Shown: one piece after another, positions 3,317-17,757 of the stretch
Layout: the number at the start of each line of letters is the position of its first letter
Position numbering within the stretch: position 1 is the stretch's first letter
NCBI GenBank assembly: GCA_016212295.1
Contig: JACRGO010000034.1
Location: 1-18,064 of the forward strand
DNA from: Nitrospinota bacterium
Lineage (GTDB): Bacteria; Nitrospinota; Nitrospinia; JACRGO01
DNA: 18,064 nucleotides
Direction of reading: 5' to 3'
The notes under the pieces: model-generated
Database searches by the model: none
What the model was told of the DNA's origin: nothing
What the model saw: only the letters and a program-made list of their open reading frames with translations
Translations under genes and position numbers: made by a program

Positions 3317-3431
3317 ATTTTTTTCAGCTTTCAGTATTCAGCAAAGGCATGGCAAAACTAAAAAAACAAATCCCTGGCCGCTGATTGCTGTGCGCTGAAA
3401 GCTTTTTGTGGTTTTTCGCGTCAAATTCCAC

Positions 3432-3437
3432 TATAAT
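3432..3437 (+). promoter_or_regulatory. Perfect TATAAT -10 hexamer upstream of the secreted-protein gene; no convincing -35
   Basis: TATAAT 35 bp upstream of the ATG at 3472. Implies the inserted gene may have its own promoter. Confidence 0.25.
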
Positions 3438-3471
3438 TTTTTTGATTTATAAACGGAGAGAAGGAAGAAAG

Positions 3472-4560
3472 ATGAATGCCTTTAATGCATGTACAAAAAA
3501 TATCGGCATTGCCCTTCTTCTTTTCCTGCTGAACCTGGTTTCTTTTATTCCGGCTTGGGCGGAAAATTTCCCGGAGCCAAATCCTCCTCTGGAAGGCCCA
3601 CGGCATCTTGAGAAAAAGAAACCTTTGCTGGAAAGGAGGGCCTTGGGGGCCCCCACAACTGAGTGGACCTACCATAAAAACCAAAAGGGAACGCATCCAA
3701 GCAATCACGAACAGGCCCTTGTATGGCTTATGAACAACGCCAGGAAGGACCCGAAAGCGGAGGGAATTTTTTTAGCCGCCACCACGGATACCGACGTGGC
3801 AAATGCGCGCCAGTATTTTAATGTCAACGCCACGATGCTCAAAAGCGAATTCGCTAAACTTCAGAAAAGGCCGCCAGCGGCCTTTGACATACGCCTTTAC
3901 AATGCCGCGTACGAACATAACAAAATTATCATTAAAAAGGACCAACAAAATCATCATGACCCCACTTGGTCACTTTATGATAAAGCAGGATTTGCCAGAA
4001 GGACCGCTGGACAGAATGTATACGCTTATGGAAAAAGCGCCATTTACCTCCATGCGGGTTGGAACATCGACTGGGGGCCAGACGCCTATGGAAAAACCAA
4101 GGGTGGAATGCAGGGGAGCGACAGCTCCGGGCGGGGCCACCGCTCCAACCTGATGGACCAAACCAAATATTCGGCCAGCTATCCCTTCGCCAACGTTGGA
4201 ATTTCAGTGGAATCCGAAAGCAACTCCGCAACCCAGGTAGGCCCCTTGGTGTCCACGGCCGATTTCGCCAATGCCGATACAAGCAAAGCCAATCACTACA
4301 ATGCCTTTATCGTGGGCACGGTTTGGCGGGACACTAATAAAAACGGCGTTTACGATTCCGGCGAAGGCTTGGGGGACGTCAAGGTTATGCCAAACCAGGG
4401 GACCTTTTGGGCAAAGACCGCGAAAAGCGGCGGATACGCCATTCCCGTGACTTCACCAGGCGATTACAACATCACATTTTCCGGCGGACAGCTCACGGCA
4501 AAAAAAACAAAAAAAACAACCGTGGTTAGTGAAAGCGTGTTGCTCGACTTAACATTGTGA
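3472..4560 (+). CDS. Secreted CAP/SCP (YkwD-like) domain protein with an unrecognised C-terminal Gly/Thr-rich domain
   Basis: N-terminal signal peptide MNAFNACTKNIGIALLLFLLNLVSFIPAWA. HEQALVWLMNNARKDP and GRGHRSNLMD...NVGISV match the CAP/YkwD H-x-x-N-x-x-R and GHRxNIL...GVG motifs. GGAG RBS precedes the start. The ORF-track start at 3385 is an upstream extension. Confidence 0.65.
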   Translation: MNAFNACTKNIGIALLLFLLNLVSFIPAWAENFPEPNPPLEGPRHLEKKKPLLERRALGAPTTEWTYHKNQKGTHPSNHEQALVWLMNNARKDPKAEGIFLAATTDTDVANARQYFNVNATMLKSEFAKLQKRPPAAFDIRLYNAAYEHNKIIIKKDQQNHHDPTWSLYDKAGFARRTAGQNVYAYGKSAIYLHAGWNIDWGPDAYGKTKGGMQGSDSSGRGHRSNLMDQTKYSASYPFANVGISVESESNSATQVGPLVSTADFANADTSKANHYNAFIVGTVWRDTNKNGVYDSGEGLGDVKVMPNQGTFWAKTAKSGGYAIPVTSPGDYNITFSGGQLTAKKTKKTTVVSESVLLDLTL

Positions 4561-5593: not shown

Positions 5594-6274
5594 ATGCTGG
5601 CAAACAGAGAAATAAAAACGAGACTGGAAAAGGCTTTCCCTATAAAACAGGCGGTGGCGCTGGCCGATGTTTTTATAGAATTCAAGGGAGACCTTGTCAA
5701 GTCTGGAGATTTCAACGAGCTTAAAAATGTAGTAAAAGAACTTGCCGAGGCTCAGAAGCGGACAGAAGTAAAAATGGGAGAACTTGCCGGCGCTCAGAAG
5801 AGGACAGAAGTAAAAATGGAAGAACTTGCCGAGGCGCAGAAACGGACGGATTATGAACTTGTCCTCTTTCGCCGCACTTTTACCTCTCAGATTGGAGGGC
5901 TTGGGGCGCGATGGGGTATGATGACGGAATCGTCGTTTCGCAACGCCATGGAGGGAATACTGTCAGAAGTTGGGTTCAAGGCCGAGAGGTTCATAGCTAA
6001 AGACAAAAAGGGGACAGTTTTCGGGTATCCGGCGGAAGTGGAGCTTGATGTTGTCGTTAAAAACGGCAAGACCCTGGTCATTGAGATTAAATCCTCGGTT
6101 AGCCGGGCGGACGCGGCCTCCTTTGACAAGAAGGTAAGCTTTTACGAGAAGGAGACACGGCGGAAGGCTAGCAGGAAGATAATTATATCTCCTTATACCG
6201 AGCCCGCGGCCCATGACGCCGCCAAAAGACTGGGGATCGAGGTTTTTACTGATATAAATGACCCGGCTTTGTAA
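5594..6274 (+). CDS. Coiled-coil-repeat plus PD-(D/E)XK-like nuclease-fold protein (DUF3782-like), inserted between fabD and fabG
   Basis: N-terminal 14-aa tandem repeats [14 protein letters not shown] x about 2.6. C-terminal [24 protein letters not shown] fits the D...(D/E)xK restriction-endonuclease-like core. No fab-pathway role. Confidence 0.55.
5738..5850 (+). repeat. In-frame 42-bp tandem repeat (about 2.6 copies) inside the 5594-6274 CDS
   Basis: Units 5738-5779 and 5780-5821 are near identical. The third unit diverges after about 27 nt. Confidence 0.85.
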
Positions 6275-7787: not shown

Positions 7788-9044
7788 GTGAAAGACCAAG
7801 TAAATCAAAGAAGAGTAGTGGTGACCGGGCTCGGCCTGGTGACCCCCCTGGGAATAGGGGTGAAGGAAACGTGGGAAGGAATTTGCGCTGGACGGTCCGG
7901 CATCGGACGCATCACCAAATTCGACCCGACGGATTACTCCTGCCAAATCGCCGGGGAGGTTAAGGGATTCGACCCGACCAATTACATGGACGCCAAGGAG
8001 GCCAGGAAGATGGACCCCTTCATCCATTACGCCATGGTCGCGGGCTCCTTTGCCGTGGAGGATTCCGGCCTCAAAATAACTCCTGAGAACGACACCAGGG
8101 TAGGCGTAAGCATCGGCGTGGGCATGGGCGGCCTTCCGGTTATTGAAAAATACCACGAGGTCGTCCTGGAACGTGGCCCCAGAAAAATCACGCCATTCTT
8201 CATCCCAATGCTTATCGCAAACATGGCGGCCGGCCATCTGTCGATGAAGTTCGGCGCCAAGGGGCCGAACTGTTGCAGCGCCACAGCCTGCGCCACCGGC
8301 ACCCACGCCATGGGCGATTCCTTTGAAATCATCCGCCGCGGCGACGCGGACGTCATGATCGCGGGCGGCGCTGAATCCGTTATCACGAAACTGGGGATCG
8401 GCGGGTTTTGCGCCATGAAGGCCCTGGCCGCGAAATACAACGGCCAGCCGGAAAAGGGAAGCCGCCCCTTTGACAGGGACCGCGACGGGTTTGTTATGGG
8501 TGAAGGCTCAGGCGTGATGGTGCTTGAGGAGTTGGAATCGGCCAAACGCAGAGGGGCCAGGATTTACGCGGAAATTGTGGGATACGGAATGAACGCCGAC
8601 GCCTATCACATGACCTTGCCCCCGCCGGAGGGAGAAGGCGCCGCCCGGTGCATGAACCTGGCCCTGAAAAAAGGAAATATCAGGCCGGAAGAGATTGATT
8701 ACATAAACGCCCATGGCACTGGAACAGCCGCGGACGTCCTGGAAACAAAGGCCATAAAGTCCGTCTTCGGCGGCCACGCATACAAGCTGGCGGTCAGCTC
8801 CACCAAGTCAATGACCGGACATCTCCTCGGGGCAGCCGGTGGAATAGAGGGCGTTTTTTCCGTTCTTGCCATTGAAAGGGGAGTCCTTCCCCCGACCATT
8901 AATTTAGAGAACCCCGACCAGGAATGTGACCTGGATTATGTCCCTAACCAATCCAGAAAAAAAGAAATAAATTTCGCACTTTCCAATTCCTTTGGATTCG
9001 GCGGGACCAACGCCTGCGTTATTTTCAAGAAATTTAATTCCTGA
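7788..9044 (+). CDS. fabF: 3-oxoacyl-ACP synthase II (FabF)
   Basis: GTG start abutting the acpP stop. RRVVVTGLGLVTPLG N-terminus. Cys-His-His triad context (ATACATG, HGTGT, GHLLGAAG). Confidence 0.92.
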   Translation: MKDQVNQRRVVVTGLGLVTPLGIGVKETWEGICAGRSGIGRITKFDPTDYSCQIAGEVKGFDPTNYMDAKEARKMDPFIHYAMVAGSFAVEDSGLKITPENDTRVGVSIGVGMGGLPVIEKYHEVVLERGPRKITPFFIPMLIANMAAGHLSMKFGAKGPNCCSATACATGTHAMGDSFEIIRRGDADVMIAGGAESVITKLGIGGFCAMKALAAKYNGQPEKGSRPFDRDRDGFVMGEGSGVMVLEELESAKRRGARIYAEIVGYGMNADAYHMTLPPPEGEGAARCMNLALKKGNIRPEEIDYINAHGTGTAADVLETKAIKSVFGGHAYKLAVSSTKSMTGHLLGAAGGIEGVFSVLAIERGVLPPTINLENPDQECDLDYVPNQSRKKEINFALSNSFGFGGTNACVIFKKFNS

Positions 9045-9861
9045 ATTTATCCAGTTCCCTCGTTGTTTCCTGGGCAATGATTTCCATCAAATCGCTTGAG
9101 ATTTTTGGGACAACTGAAGGGACGCATGGCATTCCGGCTGAGGAATGCTGGAGGGAGACGAACTTTCCCGACGGACACGCCTTGCACGATTCGCAGCGGG
9201 CGAGGATTTTCTTGGGCGGAAGGCCAAGCCCCTCGCCCACTTTCCGCAATTTTTCTATCTGGCCCTGAGACAAGGGATGCAGGTCCCCCAACTGCCTTGC
9301 CGCGTGGGTGATTTGCGCCACGTGCTCGATCCGCTCCAACAGATTATATGCGTCAAACACGGTGGCGCCAACTGTCAGGGACCCATGCCGTTCCAGCATG
9401 ATGGCGTCGAAATCCTTGATGTATTCCTGAATGGACTGCGGCACCTCGTCCGTTGTGGGGGTGGAATATGACGCGGTTGGAATGGATCCCAGTGTGAAGA
9501 CCACCTCCGGCAGCATGCACTTGGCCAGGGAGACTCCAGCCAACGTGAAGGCCACGCAATAGGTGGGATGAGCATGGACCACCGCCATGACGTCCGGCCT
9601 CATCCTGTAGCACTCCAGGTGCATCCTGATTTCAGACGAAGGACCGTATTGGCCGGATATCCGCGCACCCTCCATATCGATCACCACCAGGTCGCGCTCG
9701 TTAATGAAACCCTTATGGAGTTTGGTGGGAGTGGTGAGGACGCGGTTTCTGGGCAGGCGGAGGCTCACGTTGCCGTCGCTGGCCGCGATCCATCCCTTGT
9801 TGTACATCCTGCGGCAGACCTCCACTATGTCTTTTCTATGCTCTTCTTCGTTTTTTATCAT
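9034..9861 (-). CDS. Class II aldolase (FucA/RhaD/adducin-head family) with a C-terminal Cys-rich extension; BMC cargo candidate
   Basis: True start MIKNEEEHRKDIVEVCRRMYNKGW at 9861; the upstream MSLVTRHLSLISV is repeat-derived. HAHP metal-binding context. About 60-aa C-terminal tail with CESCKACPSGK...C and an amphipathic SSDLMEIIAQETTRELDKF. The 3' end overlaps the fabF 3' end convergently by 11 nt. Confidence 0.85.
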   Translation of the reverse strand: MIKNEEEHRKDIVEVCRRMYNKGWIAASDGNVSLRLPRNRVLTTPTKLHKGFINERDLVVIDMEGARISGQYGPSSEIRMHLECYRMRPDVMAVVHAHPTYCVAFTLAGVSLAKCMLPEVVFTLGSIPTASYSTPTTDEVPQSIQEYIKDFDAIMLERHGSLTVGATVFDAYNLLERIEHVAQITHAARQLGDLHPLSQGQIEKLRKVGEGLGLPPKKILARCESCKACPSGKFVSLQHSSAGMPCVPSVVPKISSDLMEIIAQETTRELDKFRN

Positions 9862-9872
9862 GACTGAAATCA

Positions 9873-9928
9873 GTGACAAGTGACGAGTAACAAGTGACAA
9901 GTGACAAGTGGCGAGTAACGAGTAAAAA
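9873..9928. repeat. Heptamer array A: GTGACAA GTGACGA GTAACAA GTGACAA GTGACAA GTGGCGA GTAACGA GTAAAAA
   Basis: Eight consecutive 7-mers. Preceded by TGACTGAAA. Confidence 0.9.
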
Positions 9929-9964
9929 ACGGAAAATGCCCCACTTGATCCATGCCTCTTGACA

Positions 9965-10237
9965 CTATCCCGAACAATTTATCTGATCCACTATAGCTGT
10001 AATGACCGAATGGACCGGCGCGGAGTCGTCTCCAAAAAGCTGCCTGGCCGCGTTCCCTTCCGGGGCAACCAGCACCGTGTCCCCTTCCCCTGCCTGCACA
10101 AAATCAACAGCCAGGAAGGAGCTTCCCGTTGGTTTCTGCTCCTGGTCCAGGGGCTGGACCACAAGGACCTTGTGCCCCTCGTAAGCCGGGTGCTTCAAGG
10201 TCGCGACGACATTTCCCAATACCTTGCAGATCAACAT
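9965..10237 (-). CDS. BMC vertex protein (EutN/PduN/CcmL family, BMC-P) copy 1
   Basis: MLICKVLGNVVATLKHPAYEGHKVLVVQP matches the PF03319 N-terminus. The ORF-track start at 10327 is an extension through the repeat array. Confidence 0.85.
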   Translation of the reverse strand: MLICKVLGNVVATLKHPAYEGHKVLVVQPLDQEQKPTGSSFLAVDFVQAGEGDTVLVAPEGNAARQLFGDDSAPVHSVITAIVDQINCSG

Positions 10238-10247
10238 TTTTTTCTTA

Positions 10248-10296
10248 GTGACCAGTGACGAGTAACGAGTGATCAGTGGCGAGTAACGAGTGACGA
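10248..10296. repeat. Heptamer array B1 (GTGACCA GTGACGA GTAACGA GTGATCA GTGGCGA GTAACGA GTGACGA)
   Basis: Seven 7-mers. Inverted partner B2 lies 24 bp away. Confidence 0.9.
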
Positions 10297-10320
10297 GTCT
10301 TAGAAGCATAGGTTTTTTAC

Positions 10321-10369
10321 TTGTCACTCGTCACTTGTCACTCGTCACTATTTATTTGTCACTCGTCAC
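10321..10369. repeat. Heptamer array B2 (TTGTCAC TCGTCAC TTGTCAC TCGTCAC TATTTAT TTGTCAC TCGTCAC), inverse of B1. The two form a palindrome of about 120 bp
   Basis: Reverse-complement orientation of B1. It contains the stop codon and last codons (..SSDE*) of the BMC-P gene at 10359-10637. Confidence 0.9.
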
Positions 10370-10637
10370 TGCTCCTTGCGTCTATATTGTCAACAATCCC
10401 GACGATACCGGCGTCTATGGGACTGAAGGTGTCCGGCAGAGTCAGGGCCGCCTCGCGTCCGACCACATAAGAGACGGTCTCGCCGATTCCGGCCTGTTGG
10501 GCGTCCACCATCACAAGAGGCTCTCCCTTGGGTTTTCGCTCGTGGTCCACCGGCTGCACCAGCAGGAGCTTGATTCCCTCCAGGCTTGGATGCTTCACCG
10601 TGGCCACCACCCGTCCTATTACTTTTCCTATGTGCAT
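10359..10637 (-). CDS. BMC vertex protein (EutN/PduN family, BMC-P) copy 2
   Basis: MHIGKVIGRVVATVKHPSLEGIKLLLVQPV. GGAG RBS. C-terminal tail encoded by repeat array B2. Confidence 0.85.
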   Translation of the reverse strand: MHIGKVIGRVVATVKHPSLEGIKLLLVQPVDHERKPKGEPLVMVDAQQAGIGETVSYVVGREAALTLPDTFSPIDAGIVGIVDNIDARSSDE

Positions 10638-10772: not shown

Positions 10773-10994
10773 CTACCGAGCCTTTTGAAAATGTTGCCAT
10801 GCCTCATCCTCCTCTGGACGGTTCCAATCTTCCGCGAGGGCTGTTTCGCTTAACAAGGCTTCCTCATTTACATGAATTAAAGGTTCCTCATCAAGAATCG
10901 TGACTAATGCACGGCAGGATGAAGACAGTTTAATCGGTTCAGACAACTTAATATTGCCTTTTAGATCAATTGTTGCTTCAAGTATGCGGACCAT
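10773..10994 (-). CDS. Small AF2212/AbrB-like, antitoxin-like protein (73 aa), orphan
   Basis: True start MVRILEATIDLKGNIKLSEPIKL...ALVTILDEE with AGGAGG 7 nt upstream; the ORF-track TTG start translates the RBS. C-terminal LSETALAEDWNRPEEDEAW resembles the tails of type II antitoxins that pair with PIN toxins. No toxin gene is adjacent. Confidence 0.4.
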   Translation of the reverse strand: MVRILEATIDLKGNIKLSEPIKLSSSCRALVTILDEEPLIHVNEEALLSETALAEDWNRPEEDEAWQHFQKAR

Positions 10995-11066
10995 ATTAGG
11001 CCTCCTTTTTTTCAAATAAATATGCTTTTATTTAATGAAATCAAATATACACATTTCTTGATAGAG

Positions 11067-11084: not shown

Positions 11085-11630
11085 TTAGAGCAATTTAAAA
11101 TTCAAATCCGCATGGGGGGCGGGGATGATCTCCTTTGCAACCAGGGTCCCCCCTTCCATTAAATTCCTGATCCCTGCCTCTATCGCGGCTTCCACCTCGG
11201 AGATGTCGCCGGTCAGGGTGTAAAACGATTTTCCGCCAAGGCCGTTGGCAAGGCGCAGCTCGATGAGGTCCACCTTCGCCGCCTTCACCGCCGTGTCGGC
11301 TGAAACAATGGCCGAGGCCACTGAGAAGGTCTCCACTATCCCCAATGCCGCAAGTCCCGCCACCTCGGTGCATGCCTCCATTGCCGGGATGACCTGCCCA
11401 TGTACCTGGGGCAGAAAAAGTTCGTCCACCACAAGTTCTGCCCCTATGCTTATCCCCTCCCTGACGGCTTCCTCGACCGAGGCAACGTCGCCGCGCACAA
11501 GGACCATGTACTTTCCGGGGCACACGGTCCTTGCTTCCATGAGCTTCACCGGGGCCTTTTTCATCATGGCGTCGCAAACCCGTATTCCCCTGGCAACGCT
11601 TCTTAGTTCTATTAATCCTATAGCTTCCAT
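11085..11630 (-). CDS. Tandem BMC-domain shell protein (BMC-T, PduT-like)
   Basis: Two PF00936-like halves: MEAIGLIELRSVARGIRVCDAMMKKA... and LAALGIVETFSVASAIVSADTAVKAAKV.... 181 aa. Confidence 0.8.
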   Translation of the reverse strand: MEAIGLIELRSVARGIRVCDAMMKKAPVKLMEARTVCPGKYMVLVRGDVASVEEAVREGISIGAELVVDELFLPQVHGQVIPAMEACTEVAGLAALGIVETFSVASAIVSADTAVKAAKVDLIELRLANGLGGKSFYTLTGDISEVEAAIEAGIRNLMEGGTLVAKEIIPAPHADLNFKLL

Positions 11631-11638
11631 TAATTATC

Positions 11639-11672
11639 CACGTTATCAGTTCACGGTTTACGGTTCACGGTT
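11639..11672. repeat. Heptamer array CACGTTA TCAGTT CACGGTT TACGGTT CACGGTT; left boundary of the four-helix-bundle cassette
   Basis: Inverse partner AACCGTG array at 12042-12069. Contains the stop codon of the 11665-12015 gene. Confidence 0.85.
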
Positions 11673-12041: not shown

Positions 12042-12069
12042 AACCGTGAACTGTGAACCGTGAACCGTA
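12042..12069. repeat. Heptamer array AACCGTG AACTGTG AACCGTG AACCGTA; right boundary of the four-helix-bundle cassette
   Basis: Reverse complement of the 11639-11672 array. Confidence 0.85.
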
Positions 12070-12090
12070 AACAATTTTCTTATTTTATGT

Positions 12091-13425
12091 CTACCTGCTT
12101 TCAATTCCCACATACCTCCCGTTCACCTCCGCCACTGTCCCGTCCATGGAGGCGTGGACTCTGGCGCCCATTTTTCCCTCCGGTATCTCGCCCACCAATT
12201 GGCCTTGCTTCACCTTGTCCCCTGTCTTCACCACAGGGACGGCGGCCGCGCCGATATGCTGCCTCAAGGGAATTTTTACATTGGTGAAGGGAAAATCCCT
12301 TTCTTCCCATTCGGGGTGGACGTCGTATTCCTTTAGACCCAGCCTTTGAATCAACCGGTCCTTGGGGATTTTCCTGTAGTCGCGGTATTGGTCCTGGGCC
12401 AGGCCGCTTCGTGAATGCGGGTTCTTTATCCCTGCCCCGGCTAGGCGTCCCTTGAATTCCCTGAAAACAACGCGGGGAGAAAGGGCCATGGGACAGGCAT
12501 AGAGGTCGCATACCCCGCATTCACAACAGAGAAAGGCGCGGGTTATTGTGTCGGTGTCAAGGTCCCGATCATAGTCTATTACCCGCATAATCTTGTGCGG
12601 CTCAAGACTATGCCCCTGGAGCCAGCGGGGACAAAAATCAGTGCAGTAGCGGCACTGCTCGCAAATTGATTTGGACATGCGCGCCTCTGTGGCCACTGTC
12701 CTGCTTCTTCGCATTACGTAAGGGTGGTCCTTTGGGAGCACGATGATCCCGGAGGTGGTCTTCGTGACCGGCTCCCCGCAATCCCCTGCCAACCGTCCCA
12801 TCATGGGTCCCCCCACCAGAATAACGTAATCCTCTATCCTGGCCCCGCCGCACAGCGCTATGAGGTCCTTGAAAGAAACGCCGATAGGGACCCGCAGGAC
12901 CCTTGGCCAGTTGACCTCTCCGCATACCGTTATCCGCTGGCGGACCACGGGTTCGCCGTGGAAGGCGCGGTGGATGTTGAGCAGGGTGTTGACGTTATTC
13001 ACCAAGACGCCCACATGCAAGGGAAGGCCGCCTTCGGGAATTATTCTTCCAGCGGCGTCCAGGACCAAAACATGCTCATCGCCCGCCGGGTAATAATTCC
13101 CCATTTCATGCAGCCTGATATTTTTTTCGGAGGCTGCTGCCTGGGAAAGCGATTTTACCGCTTCGTGATAATGGGCCTTGACAGCGATAATCCCCTGTCC
13201 GGCACCAACTGCCTCCATCACGAGCTTGACGCCGGAGACGATCTCGTCCGCCGCCGTCTCCATGGTCCTCTGGTCCGTGCAGAGAAGGGGCTCGCATTCC
13301 GCTCCATTGGCGATCACTATCTCAGCCCTGGCGTTGATCTTTACGTGGGTTGGAAACCCAGCCCCTCCGGCGCCCACCACTCCGGCGTTTTTAACTTTTT
13401 CTATTAATTGTTCGCGAAAACGCAT
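12091..13425 (-). CDS. PduS/RnfC-like Fe-S flavoprotein oxidoreductase (BMC-associated)
   Basis: True start MRFREQLIEKVKNAGVVGAGGAGFPTHVK with the RnfC/NqrA-type GAGGAGFP motif. Two 4Fe-4S motifs, CEQCRYCTDFCP and CCECGVCDLYACP. The ORF-track start at 13521 runs through repeat array C (LLVTRHLSLVT). Confidence 0.85.
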   Translation of the reverse strand: MRFREQLIEKVKNAGVVGAGGAGFPTHVKINARAEIVIANGAECEPLLCTDQRTMETAADEIVSGVKLVMEAVGAGQGIIAVKAHYHEAVKSLSQAAASEKNIRLHEMGNYYPAGDEHVLVLDAAGRIIPEGGLPLHVGVLVNNVNTLLNIHRAFHGEPVVRQRITVCGEVNWPRVLRVPIGVSFKDLIALCGGARIEDYVILVGGPMMGRLAGDCGEPVTKTTSGIIVLPKDHPYVMRRSRTVATEARMSKSICEQCRYCTDFCPRWLQGHSLEPHKIMRVIDYDRDLDTDTITRAFLCCECGVCDLYACPMALSPRVVFREFKGRLAGAGIKNPHSRSGLAQDQYRDYRKIPKDRLIQRLGLKEYDVHPEWEERDFPFTNVKIPLRQHIGAAAVPVVKTGDKVKQGQLVGEIPEGKMGARVHASMDGTVAEVNGRYVGIESR

Positions 13426-13435
13426 TTGAATGATA

Positions 13436-13498
13436 GTGACTGAAAGATAGTGACAAGTGACAAGTGACAAGTGACGAGTGACAAGTAAAAAGTAAAAA
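13436..13498. repeat. Heptamer array C (GTGACTG..GTGACAA x3 GTGACGA GTGACAA GTAAAAA GTAAAAA)
   Basis: Inverted partner D at 13571-13619, 72 bp away. Confidence 0.9.
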
Positions 13499-13570
13499 CT
13501 TATAGCTCTTTGGGCGGACAAAAAAAATCAATGGCCAGGGATCAGTACCGGCTCCTGGATTCTTTTCTAC

Positions 13571-13619
13571 TCGTCACTCGTCACTTGTCACTCGTTACTG
13601 CTTCTCGGTAACTCGTCAC
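13571..13619. repeat. Heptamer array D (TCGTCAC TCGTCAC TTGTCAC TCGTTAC ... TCGTCAC), inverse of C
   Basis: Ends 4 bp from the aldehyde dehydrogenase stop codon. Confidence 0.9.
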
Positions 13620-13623
13620 TGCT

Positions 13624-15114
13624 TCAAACAATTCTAAACCTGTCCTTCAAAGTACAGCGGCGCTCCCTTGTGAAGTGGACGGCGGTGGTCAGGCCCTCTC
13701 CGGTGGGGCTGGCTATGGTGAAGGACGTATACCCTTCCCCGGTGAAGCCCAATCCGGCGTATGAAGGTCCGTTCTTCACGAAGATGGAGGTGTTGATTTC
13801 CCGCGCCATGCGGCTCAGCTTGTCGATGTTTCTGGAGTGCATCACCGCCGTGTGGCCGAACCCGTGCTCCACCTCCTTGGCCAGGTCAATGGCGGCGTCC
13901 GCGTCCTTGACCCTAACCAACGGAATCAAAGGCATGAGAAGTTCCATCTGGACAAAGGGATGGCCGGCGTCCGTCTCGGCGATGATCAACCGGATATCCT
14001 CCCCGACGTTGACGCCGATCTCCTTCAGGATAACCGCCGCGTCCTTTCCCACGAATTTCTTGTTAACCACTCCGTGGGAGCCGTCAACCGGCGGCTCCTG
14101 GATAATAAGCTTCCGCATCTGGCGGATTTGCTGCTGGTTCAACTCGTAGCAGCCGTTTCGCTTGAGGGCGGATTTCAGGGAATCCGCTATTGAGGCCACT
14201 GCTATGATCTCCTTTTCCACTATGCAGACCATGTTGTTGTCGAATGACGCGCCGTTTACTATGTCAACCGCCGCGTTTTCGATGTCCGCTGTCTCGTCCA
14301 CCACCACAGGCGGATTACCTGGTCCGGCGGCGATCACCTTCTTTCCTGAATTCATGGCGGCCTTGACCACCGCGGGTCCGCCGGTGACCACCAATAACCG
14401 TATGCCGGGATGCTCCATGAGTTCCCTGGCCGATTGAATGGTCGGCTCTGATATAGTGGTTATGAGGTCCCTGGGACCGCCCGCCTTGGCTATGGCCCTG
14501 TTGAGGAGATCGACTGAATAAATGGAGATTTTTTTAGCGGTCGGGTGGGCGTTGAACACCACCGCGTTTCCCCCGGCCAGCATGCTCACCGCGTTGTTGA
14601 AGATCGTCGCGAAGGGATTTGTGCATGGGGTGATGGACCCTATGACGCCGTAAGGGGCGCGTTCCACCAACGTGAGTCCGTTATCGCCCGTGTAGCTGAC
14701 TGGTTGCAGTATTTCCAGTCCAGGCGTTTTTTCTATTGACAACCTGTTTTTCAGCGCCTTGTCCTTGACCCGGCCCATGCCTGTCTCTGACACCGCCATC
14801 TCCGCGAGTTTTTGCGCCTCTTCCAGGGCGGTTGATCGCATGGAGGCGATGATCCCGCCACGAAGGGACAAGGGCATACTGCTAAGTTCCGCGAAGGCCT
14901 TCGCGGCGGCAAGGACCGCTGAATTAATATCGCCGAACACTCCAAGCCCCTCGCCCTTGCTTTCCTTAGCGGATGAGGACGGACAGCCGTGAGGCGGATT
15001 GAACGCCGCCTGGGGCTTCGAGGGACCTGGAGCGCTAATGGTCTGCCCGCTCCATATCCTTTCAGCAACCCTTCTCACTATTGAGGCAATCTGGTCTTCT
15101 GTAAGTTGTGTCAT
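13624..15114 (-). CDS. CoA-acylating aldehyde dehydrogenase (PduP/EutE-like BMC core enzyme) with N-terminal encapsulation-peptide-like helix
   Basis: 496 aa. ALDH catalytic region ...MVCIVEKE.../...GEGYTSFTIASPTGEG. N-terminal amphipathic EDQIASIVRRVAERI followed by a Pro/Ser/Gly linker before GVFGDINSAV. Confidence 0.88.
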   Translation of the reverse strand: MTQLTEDQIASIVRRVAERIWSGQTISAPGPSKPQAAFNPPHGCPSSSAKESKGEGLGVFGDINSAVLAAAKAFAELSSMPLSLRGGIIASMRSTALEEAQKLAEMAVSETGMGRVKDKALKNRLSIEKTPGLEILQPVSYTGDNGLTLVERAPYGVIGSITPCTNPFATIFNNAVSMLAGGNAVVFNAHPTAKKISIYSVDLLNRAIAKAGGPRDLITTISEPTIQSARELMEHPGIRLLVVTGGPAVVKAAMNSGKKVIAAGPGNPPVVVDETADIENAAVDIVNGASFDNNMVCIVEKEIIAVASIADSLKSALKRNGCYELNQQQIRQMRKLIIQEPPVDGSHGVVNKKFVGKDAAVILKEIGVNVGEDIRLIIAETDAGHPFVQMELLMPLIPLVRVKDADAAIDLAKEVEHGFGHTAVMHSRNIDKLSRMAREINTSIFVKNGPSYAGLGFTGEGYTSFTIASPTGEGLTTAVHFTRERRCTLKDRFRIV

Positions 15115-15121
15115 TGTCTAA

Positions 15122-15409
15122 TTACTTCTTAAACACCAACTTATCGTCGATGTCCCATTGGTCCACTATGGCCATTATGACAGCGTCTACTGGTTTATTA
15201 TTGGTTATGTCCGTTTGCCTCGCCGAACTTCCAGTGGCGTAGAGCACTATCTCTCCCTGGCCCGCGCCGACGGAGTCGGCCGCCACCACATAGTTCTGGC
15301 CGGCCTTCCCCCTGGAATCAACGCCAGCCACAAGCTGGAGCTTGAGGCCCTCCAGCTTAGGGTCTTTCTGGGAGGCGACAACCGTCCCAACCACTTTTCC
15401 GAATAACAT
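15122..15409 (-). CDS. BMC vertex protein (EutN/PduN family, BMC-P) copy 3
   Basis: [34 protein letters not shown] 8 nt upstream. The ORF-track start at 15445 would overlap the BMC-H gene. Confidence 0.85.
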
Positions 15410-15419
15410 GAGCGGTCTC

Positions 15420-15710
15420 CTATTCCGTAGCGTTCGAGCGCCCAAGCGGGAGGGCCTTGTCGATATTGAGGTGCGGCCTTGGAATCACGTGGACGGACAC
15501 CAACTGCCCGACCTTCTCAGCGGCGCGGGAGCCGGCCTCGGTGGCGGCCTTGACCGCCGCGACGTCTCCCCTCACTATGGCGGTGACGTAGCCGCCGCCG
15601 GTTTTTTCGTATCCGACCAACTCAACCTTGGCCGCCTTGACCATGGCGTCCGACGCCTCAACCATGGCGGTGAAACCCCGCGTTTCTATCATTCCCAATG
15701 CTTCAGCCAT
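15420..15710 (-). CDS. BMC-H hexameric shell protein (PduA/EutM-like)
   Basis: [56 protein letters not shown] is a canonical PF00936 sequence. GGAGG RBS. Confidence 0.93.
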
Positions 15711-15845: not shown

Positions 15846-16472
15846 TTATTTTTTCTTCAACGCCACTCCCTCCAAACCGGAAAGCGCGGTGATCGCGGCC
15901 TCCGCCGCTGAGTCTATTTCCGATTCCGACCCGGACATATAAAGCCTCCCATAGGCGCCGAAGGGACGCACCTCAACAAGTTTTACATTCGCCGCCTTTT
16001 CCGCCTCGTTCGCGCCGAAGATAACGTATCCGGCAGGCTCAGTCTCCAGTATGAAGAGCGATTCGCCCGGAAGGATCATGGACCCGCTCCGGTTACGATT
16101 GATAAGTTGGCATTGATACGCCTCCATCGCGCGGATGATCTGGTTTGAGACGATGTCCGGCTTGATCCGGTCCGACTCCTTGATCTCCAGGTAGTCCAGG
16201 ATGGACTGTCCCGCCAGCCTCACCTCCCCCTTGTCGTGCTCGTGGACTTCCAATACCCCGTAGGCCCGCTCCACGATCTGGACCGCCGGCTGGACCTTGG
16301 TGGCCTTCAAGGCCACATCCAGGACCTTGTTGATTGCGAGTCCGGGCGCTATTTCAACAAAGAGCGACGCCACTCCAGGCACCGGGAGGAACCCCTTGGC
16401 CGTGGACCCTATATAAGAGGCCAGTTGAGCTTGAAGACTGTCCAGAAAAACATAAGTGCGCAGGGTTATCAT
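15846..16472 (-). CDS. Permuted tandem BMC-domain shell protein (BMC-T, PduB/EutL-like)
   Basis: 208 aa with two permuted-BMC halves ([19 protein letters not shown]... and ...[30 protein letters not shown]...) paralleling the EutL architecture. GGAGG RBS. Confidence 0.7.
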
Positions 16473-16491: not shown

Positions 16492-16528
16492 AGTGACTAT
16501 AAAACCAGTGACCAGTGACGAGTAATTA
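16492..16528. repeat. Heptamer array E (GTGACTA...GTGACCA GTGACGA GTAATTA)
   Basis: Overlaps the stop codon of the 16526-16807 gene. Inverse partner F at 16827-16847. Confidence 0.8.
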
Positions 16529-16807
16529 GTTTGTGCTCCTCAAGGAGCGTTGTAAGCCAATAATCATTTTTGAAATTTCGTCCAGTTCTTCCAATAAACT
16601 ATTTTCAATTCGCGACTCCAGGAGTTGTAAATTTTTACTTATGATGATTTGTGTTTCCAGTTCCGCTATATTAGATGGAATGGATACGGCCGCTCGCCGC
16701 ATTTGGGATAGCAGGCCAAATTTCTCTTCCGAAGGAAAGGAAGCAATCTGTTCCACAAAGCTGATTGACCTTTTCCATACCTCCAGGCGCTTATGCGGCT
16801 TTCCCAT
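16526..16807 (-). CDS. Four-helix-bundle protein (Avd-like / 23S-IVS family), second copy with an internal deletion of about 20 aa; possibly degenerate
   Basis: MGKPHKRLEVWKRS...FGLLSQMRRAAVSIPSNIAE|LETQIIIS lacks the G..R.S..DF..F..IA.GS segment present in the copy at 11665-12015. True ATG at 16807 with GGAGGG RBS; the track start at 16840 is repeat-derived. Confidence 0.65.
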   Translation of the reverse strand: MGKPHKRLEVWKRSISFVEQIASFPSEEKFGLLSQMRRAAVSIPSNIAELETQIIISKNLQLLESRIENSLLEELDEISKMIIGLQRSLRSTN

Positions 16808-16826
16808 GAAATCCCTCCCTTTTAAC

Positions 16827-16847
16827 TCGTCACTTGTCACTCGTCAC
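16827..16847. repeat. Heptamer array F (TCGTCAC TTGTCAC TCGTCAC), inverse of E
   Basis: Read directly from the sequence. Confidence 0.85.
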
Positions 16848-16853
16848 TATCTT

Positions 16854-17723
16854 CTAATACTGTTTCGCCACGATCGCGTCCTCTATCTTCCTCGTGTTGG
16901 CCAGGGTGCGCTGCCGGTTCGTCATGCCGATCGTTATATACAGCACGTCAATGATGCTTGACTGCGCGATCCTCGAGGCAAGGGCCTCGCTCCGGTATTT
17001 GGTCTCCTTGGAAGAGGTCACGAGGACCACGTCCGCTACCTTTGCCAGGGGCGAAAGGGAATTATTAGTGATTGCTATCGCCTTGACCCCGTTTTTCCTG
17101 GCGACTTCTATTGTGTCTATGGGGTCCCTGGTGCTCCCGGAATGGGAGATGGCAAGGACTAGGTCGCCCTTTCTCAATAGCGCGGCCTCCATCATCTGGA
17201 GGTGGCTGTCGTTTTGATAGGAGCACCAAAGCCCAAGCCTCAGGAATTTATTAAAGGCGTCAAAAAGGATGGGGGTGGAGGTCCCGACCCCGATTATCAG
17301 AATTTTTTTCGCCTTGCTCAACAGCTTCACGGCTTCCCCGACGGCCTCCGGCTTCAGCGCCTCCAGGGTGCTTTGCAGGGTCTCGATGTTGGCGGAAAAG
17401 ACCTTGCGGATGATGGTGGCCGTCCCGTCCCTTTCGCTCACGTCCTCATGTATGGCGTGGTGGATGGGAGATACAAGGTCCCGCGCCAAATTAATCTTCA
17501 GGTCCTGAAAGCCCCTGTATCCCATGGTCCTGCAGAAACGGATCACGGTCGCCTCGCTGGCCCCGGCGCCGATTGCCACTTCGCTCACCGACTGGTCAAG
17601 AACGCCCTGCGCGTTGCCGAGCGCGTATTCCGCCACTTTTTTCTCCGCCGAGTGAAGTGACGGCAGCATGCCCCTCAGTCTGGCAAGACAATTTTCCCTT
17701 GGGGCCGCTTGGGTCTTCAGCAT
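16854..17723 (-). CDS. RpiR/MurR-family transcriptional regulator (HTH plus SIS sugar-phosphate-binding domain)
   Basis: LHSAEKKVAEYAL...SEATVIRFCRTMGYRGFQDLK is an RpiR-type HTH. The SIS domain shows IGVGTS...ISHSGST. ATG at 17723 preferred; the track GTG at 17738 overlaps the -10 box. Confidence 0.85.
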   Translation of the reverse strand: MLKTQAAPRENCLARLRGMLPSLHSAEKKVAEYALGNAQGVLDQSVSEVAIGAGASEATVIRFCRTMGYRGFQDLKINLARDLVSPIHHAIHEDVSERDGTATIIRKVFSANIETLQSTLEALKPEAVGEAVKLLSKAKKILIIGVGTSTPILFDAFNKFLRLGLWCSYQNDSHLQMMEAALLRKGDLVLAISHSGSTRDPIDTIEVARKNGVKAIAITNNSLSPLAKVADVVLVTSSKETKYRSEALASRIAQSSIIDVLYITIGMTNRQRTLANTRKIEDAIVAKQY

Positions 17724-17729
17724 GATGAA

Positions 17730-17757
17730 ATTATACACGGAAAAAATTTCTTGTCAA
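17730..17757 (-). promoter_or_regulatory. Strong sigma70-like promoter TTGACA-16-TATAAT for the RpiR gene; the ATG lies 6 nt after the -10, so the mRNA is probably leaderless
   Basis: - strand TTGACA corresponds to 17752-17757 and TATAAT to 17730-17735. Confidence 0.55.

Follow-up and report, generated by a model that had tools for sequence, protein, structure and literature searches.

A cysteine motif and a predicted encapsulation peptide in the C-terminal tail of a microcompartment-associated class II aldolase

Why does a class II aldolase extend some 60 residues beyond its catalytic fold, and what is the role of the cysteines with which this extension begins? The question is raised by an 18,064-nucleotide stretch of DNA from a Nitrospinota bacterium (contig JACRGO010000034.1 of assembly GCA_016212295.1, here called the window), in which the last gene of a minus-strand operon for a bacterial microcompartment encodes an aldolase. 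The tail consists of three parts, a CxxCxxC motif, a hypervariable disordered linker, and an amphipathic helix, which are set on a complete FucA-like core. The helix very probably serves as an encapsulation peptide, and the cysteine motif is coupled to a cysteine of the core, with which it probably forms a metal site. The parts of the aldolase are listed below, with confidence values of the AlphaFold2 model given as predicted local distance difference test (pLDDT) scores.

9037-9861, minus strand: coding sequence of the class II aldolase, 275 residues (PF00596, E=1e-49), last gene of the operon; stop codon at 9034-9036
9223-9861, minus strand: catalytic core, residues 1-213, FucA-like fold with the metal ligands E77, H96, H98, and H159 intact
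9517-9519, minus strand: core cysteine C115 in the LAKC-MLPE loop, candidate fourth ligand, invariant in 121 sequences
9205-9225, minus strand: tail base GLPPKKI, residues 213-219, conserved, pLDDT ~94
9175-9195, minus strand: cysteine knuckle CESCKAC (C223, C226, and C229), cysteines 100% conserved in 121 sequences
9097-9174, minus strand: hypervariable disordered linker, residues 230-255 (~26 residues), pLDDT <50 at 233-246
9040-9096, minus strand: C-terminal amphipathic helix SDLMEIIAQETTRELDKFR, residues 256-274, predicted encapsulation peptide (AlphaFold2 helix, hydrophobic moment 0.51)

The aldolase was aligned with its 120 best homologues (51 to 91% identity), and conservation values given below refer to this alignment of 121 sequences unless another set is named. 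The minus strand from 9034 to 9240 translates to VGEGLGLPPKKILARCESCKACPSGKFVSLQHSSAGMPCVPSVVPKISSDLMEIIAQETTRELDKFRN, corresponding to residues 208 to 275, followed by the stop codon. Translation starts at the ATG at 9861, and the homologue consensus begins at the same methionine; the 13 codons upstream of it (open reading frame start at the TTG at 9900) were rejected as coding because they lie inside a heptamer repeat array and the homologues start at the ATG. Such arrays give spurious N-terminal extensions (“LVTRHLSLVT”) on the open reading frames of the aldolase, one pentamer gene, and the PduS-like gene. At the other end, the 3′ ends of the aldolase gene and the convergent fabF overlap by 11 nucleotides (9034-9044).

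The PF00596 match and the complete set of metal ligands place the protein in the class II/FucA-type fold. E77, H96, H98, and H159 (three histidines and one glutamate) are invariant in the aligned sequences and in 65 genome loci, and Foldseek aligned ~209 columns to Escherichia coli FucA (1FUA) with a TM-score of 0.88 normalized to the target. FucA-type aldolases share this fold and ligand set and have a short basic C-terminal tail after the last helix, whereas the window aldolase is 28% identical, has 62 extra residues, and differs at the catalytic Tyr113′ position, which is occupied by an invariant L117-P118-E119 (9505-9513). The best FucA models of NCBIfam scored 85 to 115 bits against cutoffs of 250 to 400, and in that collection the protein stayed below every curated equivalog cutoff for aldolases, epimerases, and decarboxylases. 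With these cutoffs missed and LPE at the Tyr113′ position, the label “fuculose-phosphate aldolase” of the source annotation is unsupported, and the chemistry and substrate may differ from those of FucA.

The PF00596 match is limited to the core, and no NCBIfam model goes past about residue 211. The solved class II aldolases (206 to 222 residues) align to query residue 206 to 213 at most, and sequence and fold searches of the PDB gave matches confined to the core and none over the tail. Pfam, NCBIfam, PDB alignments, and Foldseek all stop at the end of the core, which leaves ~62 residues of the aldolase without a counterpart in any solved relative. An earlier note on this DNA had placed an extension beyond the FucA-type fold at 9034-9240, and both its existence and its coordinates are confirmed by the translation and the alignments. 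In the AlphaFold2 monomer model, which was built from the alignment described above, the core has pLDDT values mostly above 90, and the tail falls into zones: residues 221 to 230 have values of ~59, residues 233 to 246 lie below 50, and residues 256 to 274 are predicted as a helix, most of which lies in blocks scoring 87 to 95. The conservation profile is similarly divided. The tail base, with the family form GLPxRKI, is well conserved (G213 100%, P215 92%, K218 87%), whereas column identity in linker residues 234 to 255 is mostly 3 to 31% with gaps of up to 86%; C246 within the linker is conserved in the nearest clade only. The segment after the third cysteine, comprising linker and helix, ranges from 25 to 117 residues among the homologues.

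Between the tail base and the linker, C223, C226, and C229 are present in all 121 sequences, N227 and A228 are conserved at 93%, and right after the motif conservation collapses to 10 to 30% identity per column, with many gaps. The distribution of the motif follows that of C115 in two further sets. The first comprises the aldolases of 67 genome loci, 65 of which could be aligned over the core: C115 is present in 35 of the 36 loci with the motif and absent from 25 of the 29 without it, and in a Polyangiaceae locus (L031) both have been lost. The second is a distant set of 151 sequences, composed of the query and the best 150 of a search with the core only (residues 1 to 212) against 1.84 billion cluster representatives, which share ~50% identity or less with one another. 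Homologues at E≤1e-10 number ~4,700. In association tests on this set, which ignore phylogeny and for which the ranking against all other columns serves as the internal control, Cys115 was, of all 205 core columns, the one most strongly associated with a tail-position cysteine (Fisher's exact test, 4e-9; next best column, 2.5e-4), and the two strongest core correlates of the full CxxCxxC were Ala113 (6e-7) and Cys115 (8e-6). The features form a hierarchy of decreasing breadth, from a single tail cysteine 16 to 20 residues past L205 through C115 to the complete CxxCxxC. A tail cysteine at the C223 position is found in 36 of the 48 representatives bearing C115, and 12 of the 19 motif-bearing sequences of the distant set have the form CxxCGxC, a ferredoxin-type signature.

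The motif and the helix are separate modules, as judged from the sequences, because each occurs without the other. Planctomycetota aldolases encoded next to a pentamer triplet (L034 at 8115-8774, L036, and L037) keep the motif and have no helix, and the L034 protein terminates right after ...CKPCRVC; Acidobacteria-type relatives, by contrast, have the helix on a cysteine-free tail. The Planctomycetota proteins in turn imply that the motif serves some function independently of the helix. The earlier note had regarded the cysteine cluster as an odd part of an encapsulation peptide; the cluster turns out to be invariant, but it belongs to a module distinct from the peptide. Aldolases with the motif occur in Nitrospinota, Myxococcota, Planctomycetota, Chloroflexota, and Eiseniibacteriota, and the cluster members of ten representatives carry generic protein names, with Polyangia and Promineifilaceae among the few taxa named. 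A strict link of the motif to PduS/PduT in the same locus was considered and rejected, as the motif is also found in loci without PduS (L007, L017, L034, L036, and L037). One review treats the aldolase linker as unconserved, and its own composition table lists aldolase linkers, without comment, as having the highest cysteine content, 5.5% (PMC4594438). Among the papers searched, none describes the aldolase cysteine motif, although an earlier mention in Erbilgin et al. 2014 or the supplement of Aussignargues 2015 is possible. The cysteine knuckle and its coupling to a core cysteine seem not to have been described before in this large family of microcompartment aldolases, which spans several phyla.

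The positions of the four cysteines in the enzyme suggest where they might come together. HMMER aligns C115 with Ile111 of FucA, 2 to 4 residues before the catalytic Tyr113′ position. In FucA, Tyr113′ extends into the active site of the neighboring subunit (PMC11841055), and Tyr113′, Tyr209, and Arg212 have been targets of active-site mutagenesis (PDB entry titles; for Tyr113′ also PMC11841055). The GLPxRKI segment (residues 213 to 219) is the equivalent of the C-terminal tail that FucA-type aldolases normally have at the active site, and the motif begins three residues further on. Tyr209 and Arg212 are reportedly, from work of Joerger et al. in 2000, part of a mobile tail that closes over the FucA active site. 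Because C115 adjoins the Tyr113′ position and the motif follows the active-site tail, a meeting of C115 and the motif at the entrance of the active site is plausible. Next to the core, the model is least confident in the C115 loop (pLDDT 79) and the motif (~59), and these low values would fit elements that become ordered only with a ligand or a neighboring subunit.

We estimate the probability that C223, C226, and C229 form a four-cysteine metal site together with C115 at roughly 0.6. The suggestion of the earlier note that CxxCxxC could be a metal or iron-sulfur (Fe-S) motif is strengthened by the invariance of the cysteines and their covariation with C115. Several observations weigh against such a site. 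Besides the neglect of phylogeny in the association tests, the covariation is incomplete, as 4 of the 19 motif-bearing representatives and locus L034 have no C115, and the full motif is lacking in ~33 representatives and 4 loci that do have C115. The motif of this putative site reaches a pLDDT of only ~59 in the monomer, whereas well-formed Cys4 sites are often modeled confidently, and searches of Pfam at E≤10 with six isolated tails returned neither Fer4 nor zinc-finger models, nor any other informative match. In addition, an aldolase has no obvious need of a redox cofactor.

Two well-known motifs share the spacing of the knuckle, namely, the ferredoxin-type [4Fe-4S] motif CxxCxxCxxxCP and the structural zinc motif of medium-chain alcohol dehydrogenases, C-x2-C-x2-C-x7-C (Cys97/100/103/111 in the horse liver enzyme). 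The aldolase tail has the three cysteines at two-residue intervals in common with both, with glycine before the third in most distant relatives; unlike in these motifs, the candidate for the fourth ligand is a remote core cysteine, and there is neither a profile match nor a ferredoxin fold around the motif. We favor a [4Fe-4S]-type cluster as the metal, at somewhat below even odds, because of the CxxCGxC form, the arrangement of three close cysteines and one remote cysteine, and the Fe-S-rich context of the operon, with its genes for a PduS-like Fe-S flavoprotein and for a PduT-like shell protein whose pore cysteine lies in the motif TVCPGKY. The four cysteines could instead bind zinc as an architectural clamp that holds the tail base on the core, which would suit an enzyme that is not a redox enzyme and a site that tolerates oxygen, and would agree with the alcohol dehydrogenase spacing and with the lack of both a ferredoxin-type Cys-Pro fourth ligand and a Fer4 match. 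Many Nitrospinota homologues even have a further cysteine 4 to 9 residues downstream (for instance, CNDCNACGKHxC), but this is missing in 69 of the 121 close homologues, which leaves the remote C115 as the fourth ligand in a combination typical of Fe-S proteins, and the distant members of the family mostly show CxxCGxC, a typical cluster-binding signature. A structural zinc site, the main rival reading, seems to us possible but rather unlikely.

The cysteines might also act as redox thiols, forming disulfides within or between subunits (for instance, C115-C223) that, depending on the redox state of the lumen, would hold the tail in place or set it free, or would link cargo proteins to one another. 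Redox-sensitive cysteines have been discussed for carboxysome scaffold proteins and provide a precedent, and the single cysteine at the C223 position, which is far more widespread than the motif and most strongly tied to C115, would suit a one-to-one pair. Three invariant cysteines separated by exactly two residues, with an Asn or Gly conserved in between, speak instead for metal ligation, and some relatives have a tail cysteine but no C115, so that disulfide chemistry appears improbable as the main role. Cysteine clusters on terminal extensions specific to microcompartment-associated versions are likewise found in other proteins, such as the C-terminal four-cysteine domain of the MIC3 aldehyde dehydrogenase, the 4xCys extension of the MIC6 oxidoreductase, and a small ACI protein with an encapsulation peptide and three cysteines (PMC8217296 supplement); the aldolase motif is not mentioned in that supplement. 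No encapsulation peptides are detectable in the MIC3 type (PMC8217296 supplement), and the Planctomycetota aldolases with CxxC(G/R)xC and no helix (L034, L036, and L037) resemble it in this respect.

The terminal helix is a more familiar element. Its hydrophobic moment of 0.51 lies at about the 95th percentile within the protein, and among the homologues, the last 28 residues reach at least 0.45 in 110 of the 121 sequences, with a median best moment of 0.61 compared with 0.28 in the linkers and conserved hydrophobic positions at L258, I262, V266, and L270. Encapsulation peptides are defined as short amphipathic helices (~15 to 20 residues) at an enzyme terminus, set off by a flexible, poorly conserved linker (Kinney 2012/Aussignargues 2015; PMC4594438). 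The aldolase helix is such a short terminal amphipathic helix behind a poorly conserved flexible linker, which is itself preceded by the invariant segment of residues 223 to 229. A helix of ~17 residues after a linker of 23 to 81 residues has been reported in 21 of 23 microcompartment aldolases and in none of 12 controls (Aussignargues et al. 2015; PMC4594438), and an aldolase C-terminal encapsulation peptide is listed for ACI, MUF2, MUF3, and other locus types (Sutter et al. 2021; PMC8217296 and supplement). The window aldolase agrees with the published peptides (PVM, PVM-like, GRM5, ACI, MUF2/3, and SPU5; Aussignargues 2015, Sutter 2021) in its PF00596 family, in the terminus that carries the helix, in the setting among shell genes, and in the layout, an amphipathic helix of ~17 to 19 residues after a variable linker of 23 to 81 residues. 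The difference is that the first 7 residues of the “linker” are, in the window family, an invariant CxxCxxC tied to a core cysteine.

The aldehyde dehydrogenase (ALDH) of the same operon, an acylating enzyme of the PduP/EutE type, is the second cargo enzyme and carries a corresponding element at its N terminus.

13624-15114, minus strand: acylating ALDH (PduP/EutE type), second cargo enzyme (PRK15398; PF00171)
15049-15099, minus strand: N-terminal encapsulation peptide of the ALDH, EDQIASIVRRVAERIWS, residues 6-22, helix predicted by AlphaFold2, hydrophobic moment 0.72; linker at 14944-15048

This protein matches the NCBIfam model PRK15398 from residue 6 onward (681 bits against a cutoff of 403). 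Its N-terminal sequence EDQIASIVRRVAERIW is predicted by AlphaFold2 to form a helix at residues 6 to 22 and a disordered linker at residues 23 to 54 (32 residues, pLDDT <50), and the helix motif DQIAxIVxRVxxRL is kept in 17 of 19 related loci with a readable ALDH N terminus. It is an ordinary member of the PduP/EutE-type enzymes with an N-terminal encapsulation peptide and shows no notable difference from them. Structure prediction of both termini, which the earlier note had proposed as a check, thus gave a helix with a disordered linker in each, and the amphipathic helices that the note had assigned to the end of the aldolase and, together with a flexible linker, to the beginning of the ALDH (start at 15114) are borne out. 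The alternative named there, a disordered tail without an amphipathic helix, does not apply, as the disordered linker of the aldolase tail is followed by a predicted amphipathic helix.

We consider it very likely, from both sequence and model, that the aldolase helix is a C-terminal encapsulation peptide with a targeting function. Shell genes were found within 10 kb in 25 of 50 loci whose aldolases have at least 240 residues and in 2 of 16 loci whose aldolases have at most 232. The earlier note held that its proposal would fall if homologues outside microcompartment loci carried the same tail, and the result is divided: 14 of the 16 tail-less relatives are without shell genes, which agrees with targeting, and 25 of the 50 tail-bearing relatives are also without a shell gene in this range, even at relaxed thresholds, which does not. 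Other points that weigh against targeting are that the window helix is weaker than the consensus and slightly degenerate, with Thr at position 266 in place of the Val found in 81% of the homologues, and that the literature searched yielded no experiment on an aldolase encapsulation peptide. The helix could then be an oligomerization or regulatory element of the aldolase that resembles encapsulation peptides by generic amphipathicity, a reading that the unlinked half of the tail-bearing relatives, the merely moderate moment of the window helix, and the lack of a direct experiment would all allow. The unlinked cases, however, are mainly from Myxococcota and Acidobacteria, for which satellite and fragmented loci with unlinked cargo genes are documented (PMC8217296 supplement); in Minicystis rosea, for example, the tail-bearing aldolase stands alone among transporter genes, and the genome has SPU3-type shell loci elsewhere (PMC8217296 catalogue). 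The scarcity of shell genes near the short relatives, the same hydrophobic pattern in the ALDH of the operon, and a hypervariable linker of varying length, which suits a tether and not a structural element, further make a nontargeting helix very improbable. As a targeting element, the encapsulation-peptide part is already known, and the aldolase and ALDH peptides are ordinary members of the published class.

The remaining genes of the microcompartment operon are arranged as follows, in the order of transcription.

16854-17738, minus strand: RpiR-type regulator, first in the operon
15846-16472, minus strand: CcmP-like double-stacking trimer gene (PF00936; NCBIfam CcmP model, E=1e-81)
15420-15710, minus strand: hexamer shell gene (PF00936)
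15122-15445, minus strand: third pentamer gene (PF03319)
12091-13521, minus strand: PduS/RnfC-like flavoprotein with a 4Fe-4S dicluster domain (PF01512, PF10531, PF13534, and PF13375)
11085-11630, minus strand: PduT-like tandem shell protein with the pore-cysteine motif TVCPGKY (two PF00936 domains; best NCBIfam model eut_PduT)
10359-10637 and 9965-10327, minus strand: two pentamer genes of the EutN/CcmL family, directly upstream of the aldolase (PF03319, E=4e-26 and 7e-28)

The operon thus has three pentamer, one hexamer, and two trimer shell genes, placed around both enzyme genes, and no PduL-type phosphotransacylase was seen among the genes of the window. By gene content, its gene set fits the text description of the “HO type II” loci (PMC8217296 supplement), to which it may belong. 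Loci of this type have a pentamer triplet, an aldolase gene that neighbors two pentamer genes, and an ALDH whose N terminus carries an encapsulation peptide (PMC8217296 supplement), and the window holds all listed items of the HO type and the incomplete core, namely, the pentamer triplet, the single hexamer, the CcmP-like double trimer, the single-layer trimer, the ALDH, and the aldolase. The Sutter 2021 catalogue (PMC8217296) contains no Nitrospinota loci. The closest genomic relative of the locus is in a Nitrospinia metagenome-assembled genome, at 75% identity.

The plus strand of the window carries a fatty-acid synthesis operon (yceD, plsX, fabH, fabD, fabG, acpP, and fabF, the last at 7788-9044) that converges on the microcompartment operon. 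It is interrupted on the same strand, at 5594-6274 and 3385-4560, by a PD-(D/E)XK nuclease/DUF3782 gene and a gene whose matches to SdrD_B and carboxypeptidase-regulatory-like models are weak. A tandem repeat of 7 nucleotides, AGTGAC[A/G], and its complement form intergenic arrays at 9865-9930, 10242-10373, 13435-13624, 16502-16530, and 16812-16872, which stand as inverted pairs around small genes inside the microcompartment operon; one pentamer gene, for example, is bracketed by the pair at 9871-9930 and 10312-10371. Inserted between the microcompartment genes are two that encode 23S rRNA intervening-sequence proteins (PF05635; 11665-12015 and 16526-16840, minus strand), each surrounded by inverted heptamer-repeat arms (11642-11672 with 12042-12072, of a GTTCACG family, and 16502-16530 with 16812-16872), and together with these arms they look like small mobile or selfish insertions. 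Between the PduT-like and pentamer genes lies a small open reading frame of 73 to 80 codons (10773-11015, minus strand) with no Pfam match, whose C-terminal AEDWNRPEEDEAW is antitoxin-like as judged by eye only. In the PduS/RnfC-like protein, the RnfC_N barrel domain is C terminal (residues 414 to 471), behind the Complex1_51K, SLBB, and 4Fe-4S domains; this order is permuted compared with RnfC, where RnfC_N is N terminal, and the rnfC model covers profile positions 121 to 429 only.

Taken together, the parts of the tail could work as follows. The four-cysteine metal site would fasten the tail base close to the entrance of the active site, the ~26 disordered residues of the linker would serve as a flexible tether, and the 19-residue helix, like the N-terminal peptide of the ALDH, would recruit the enzyme into the microcompartment lumen. 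As a matter of speculation, the metal site could lock the catalytic tail, sense the redox state, or anchor the tether. A more specific version, which we consider doubtful, is that in the signature aldolase of this widespread group of microcompartments, CxxC(G/N)xC and C115 bind an unrecognized [4Fe-4S] cluster at the mouth of the active site that gates the aldehyde-generating step in response to redox state or oxygen and is perhaps wired to the PduS/PduT electron conduit of the operon, with the linker and peptide hanging from the metal-locked base.

With the targeting helix, the class gains no more than one further member, from a Nitrospinota-like locus whose type is still described as having an enigmatic function. 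The cysteine motif, being conserved, contradicts the published view of aldolase linkers as unconserved, and for engineered targeting tags, the division of the tail shows which part is tether and which belongs to the enzyme. C115, C223, C226, and C229 provide a mutable handle on the build or regulation of the first, aldehyde-producing enzyme, and the motif may be related to the cysteine-rich extensions that recur, so far without explanation, on other cargo of microcompartments.

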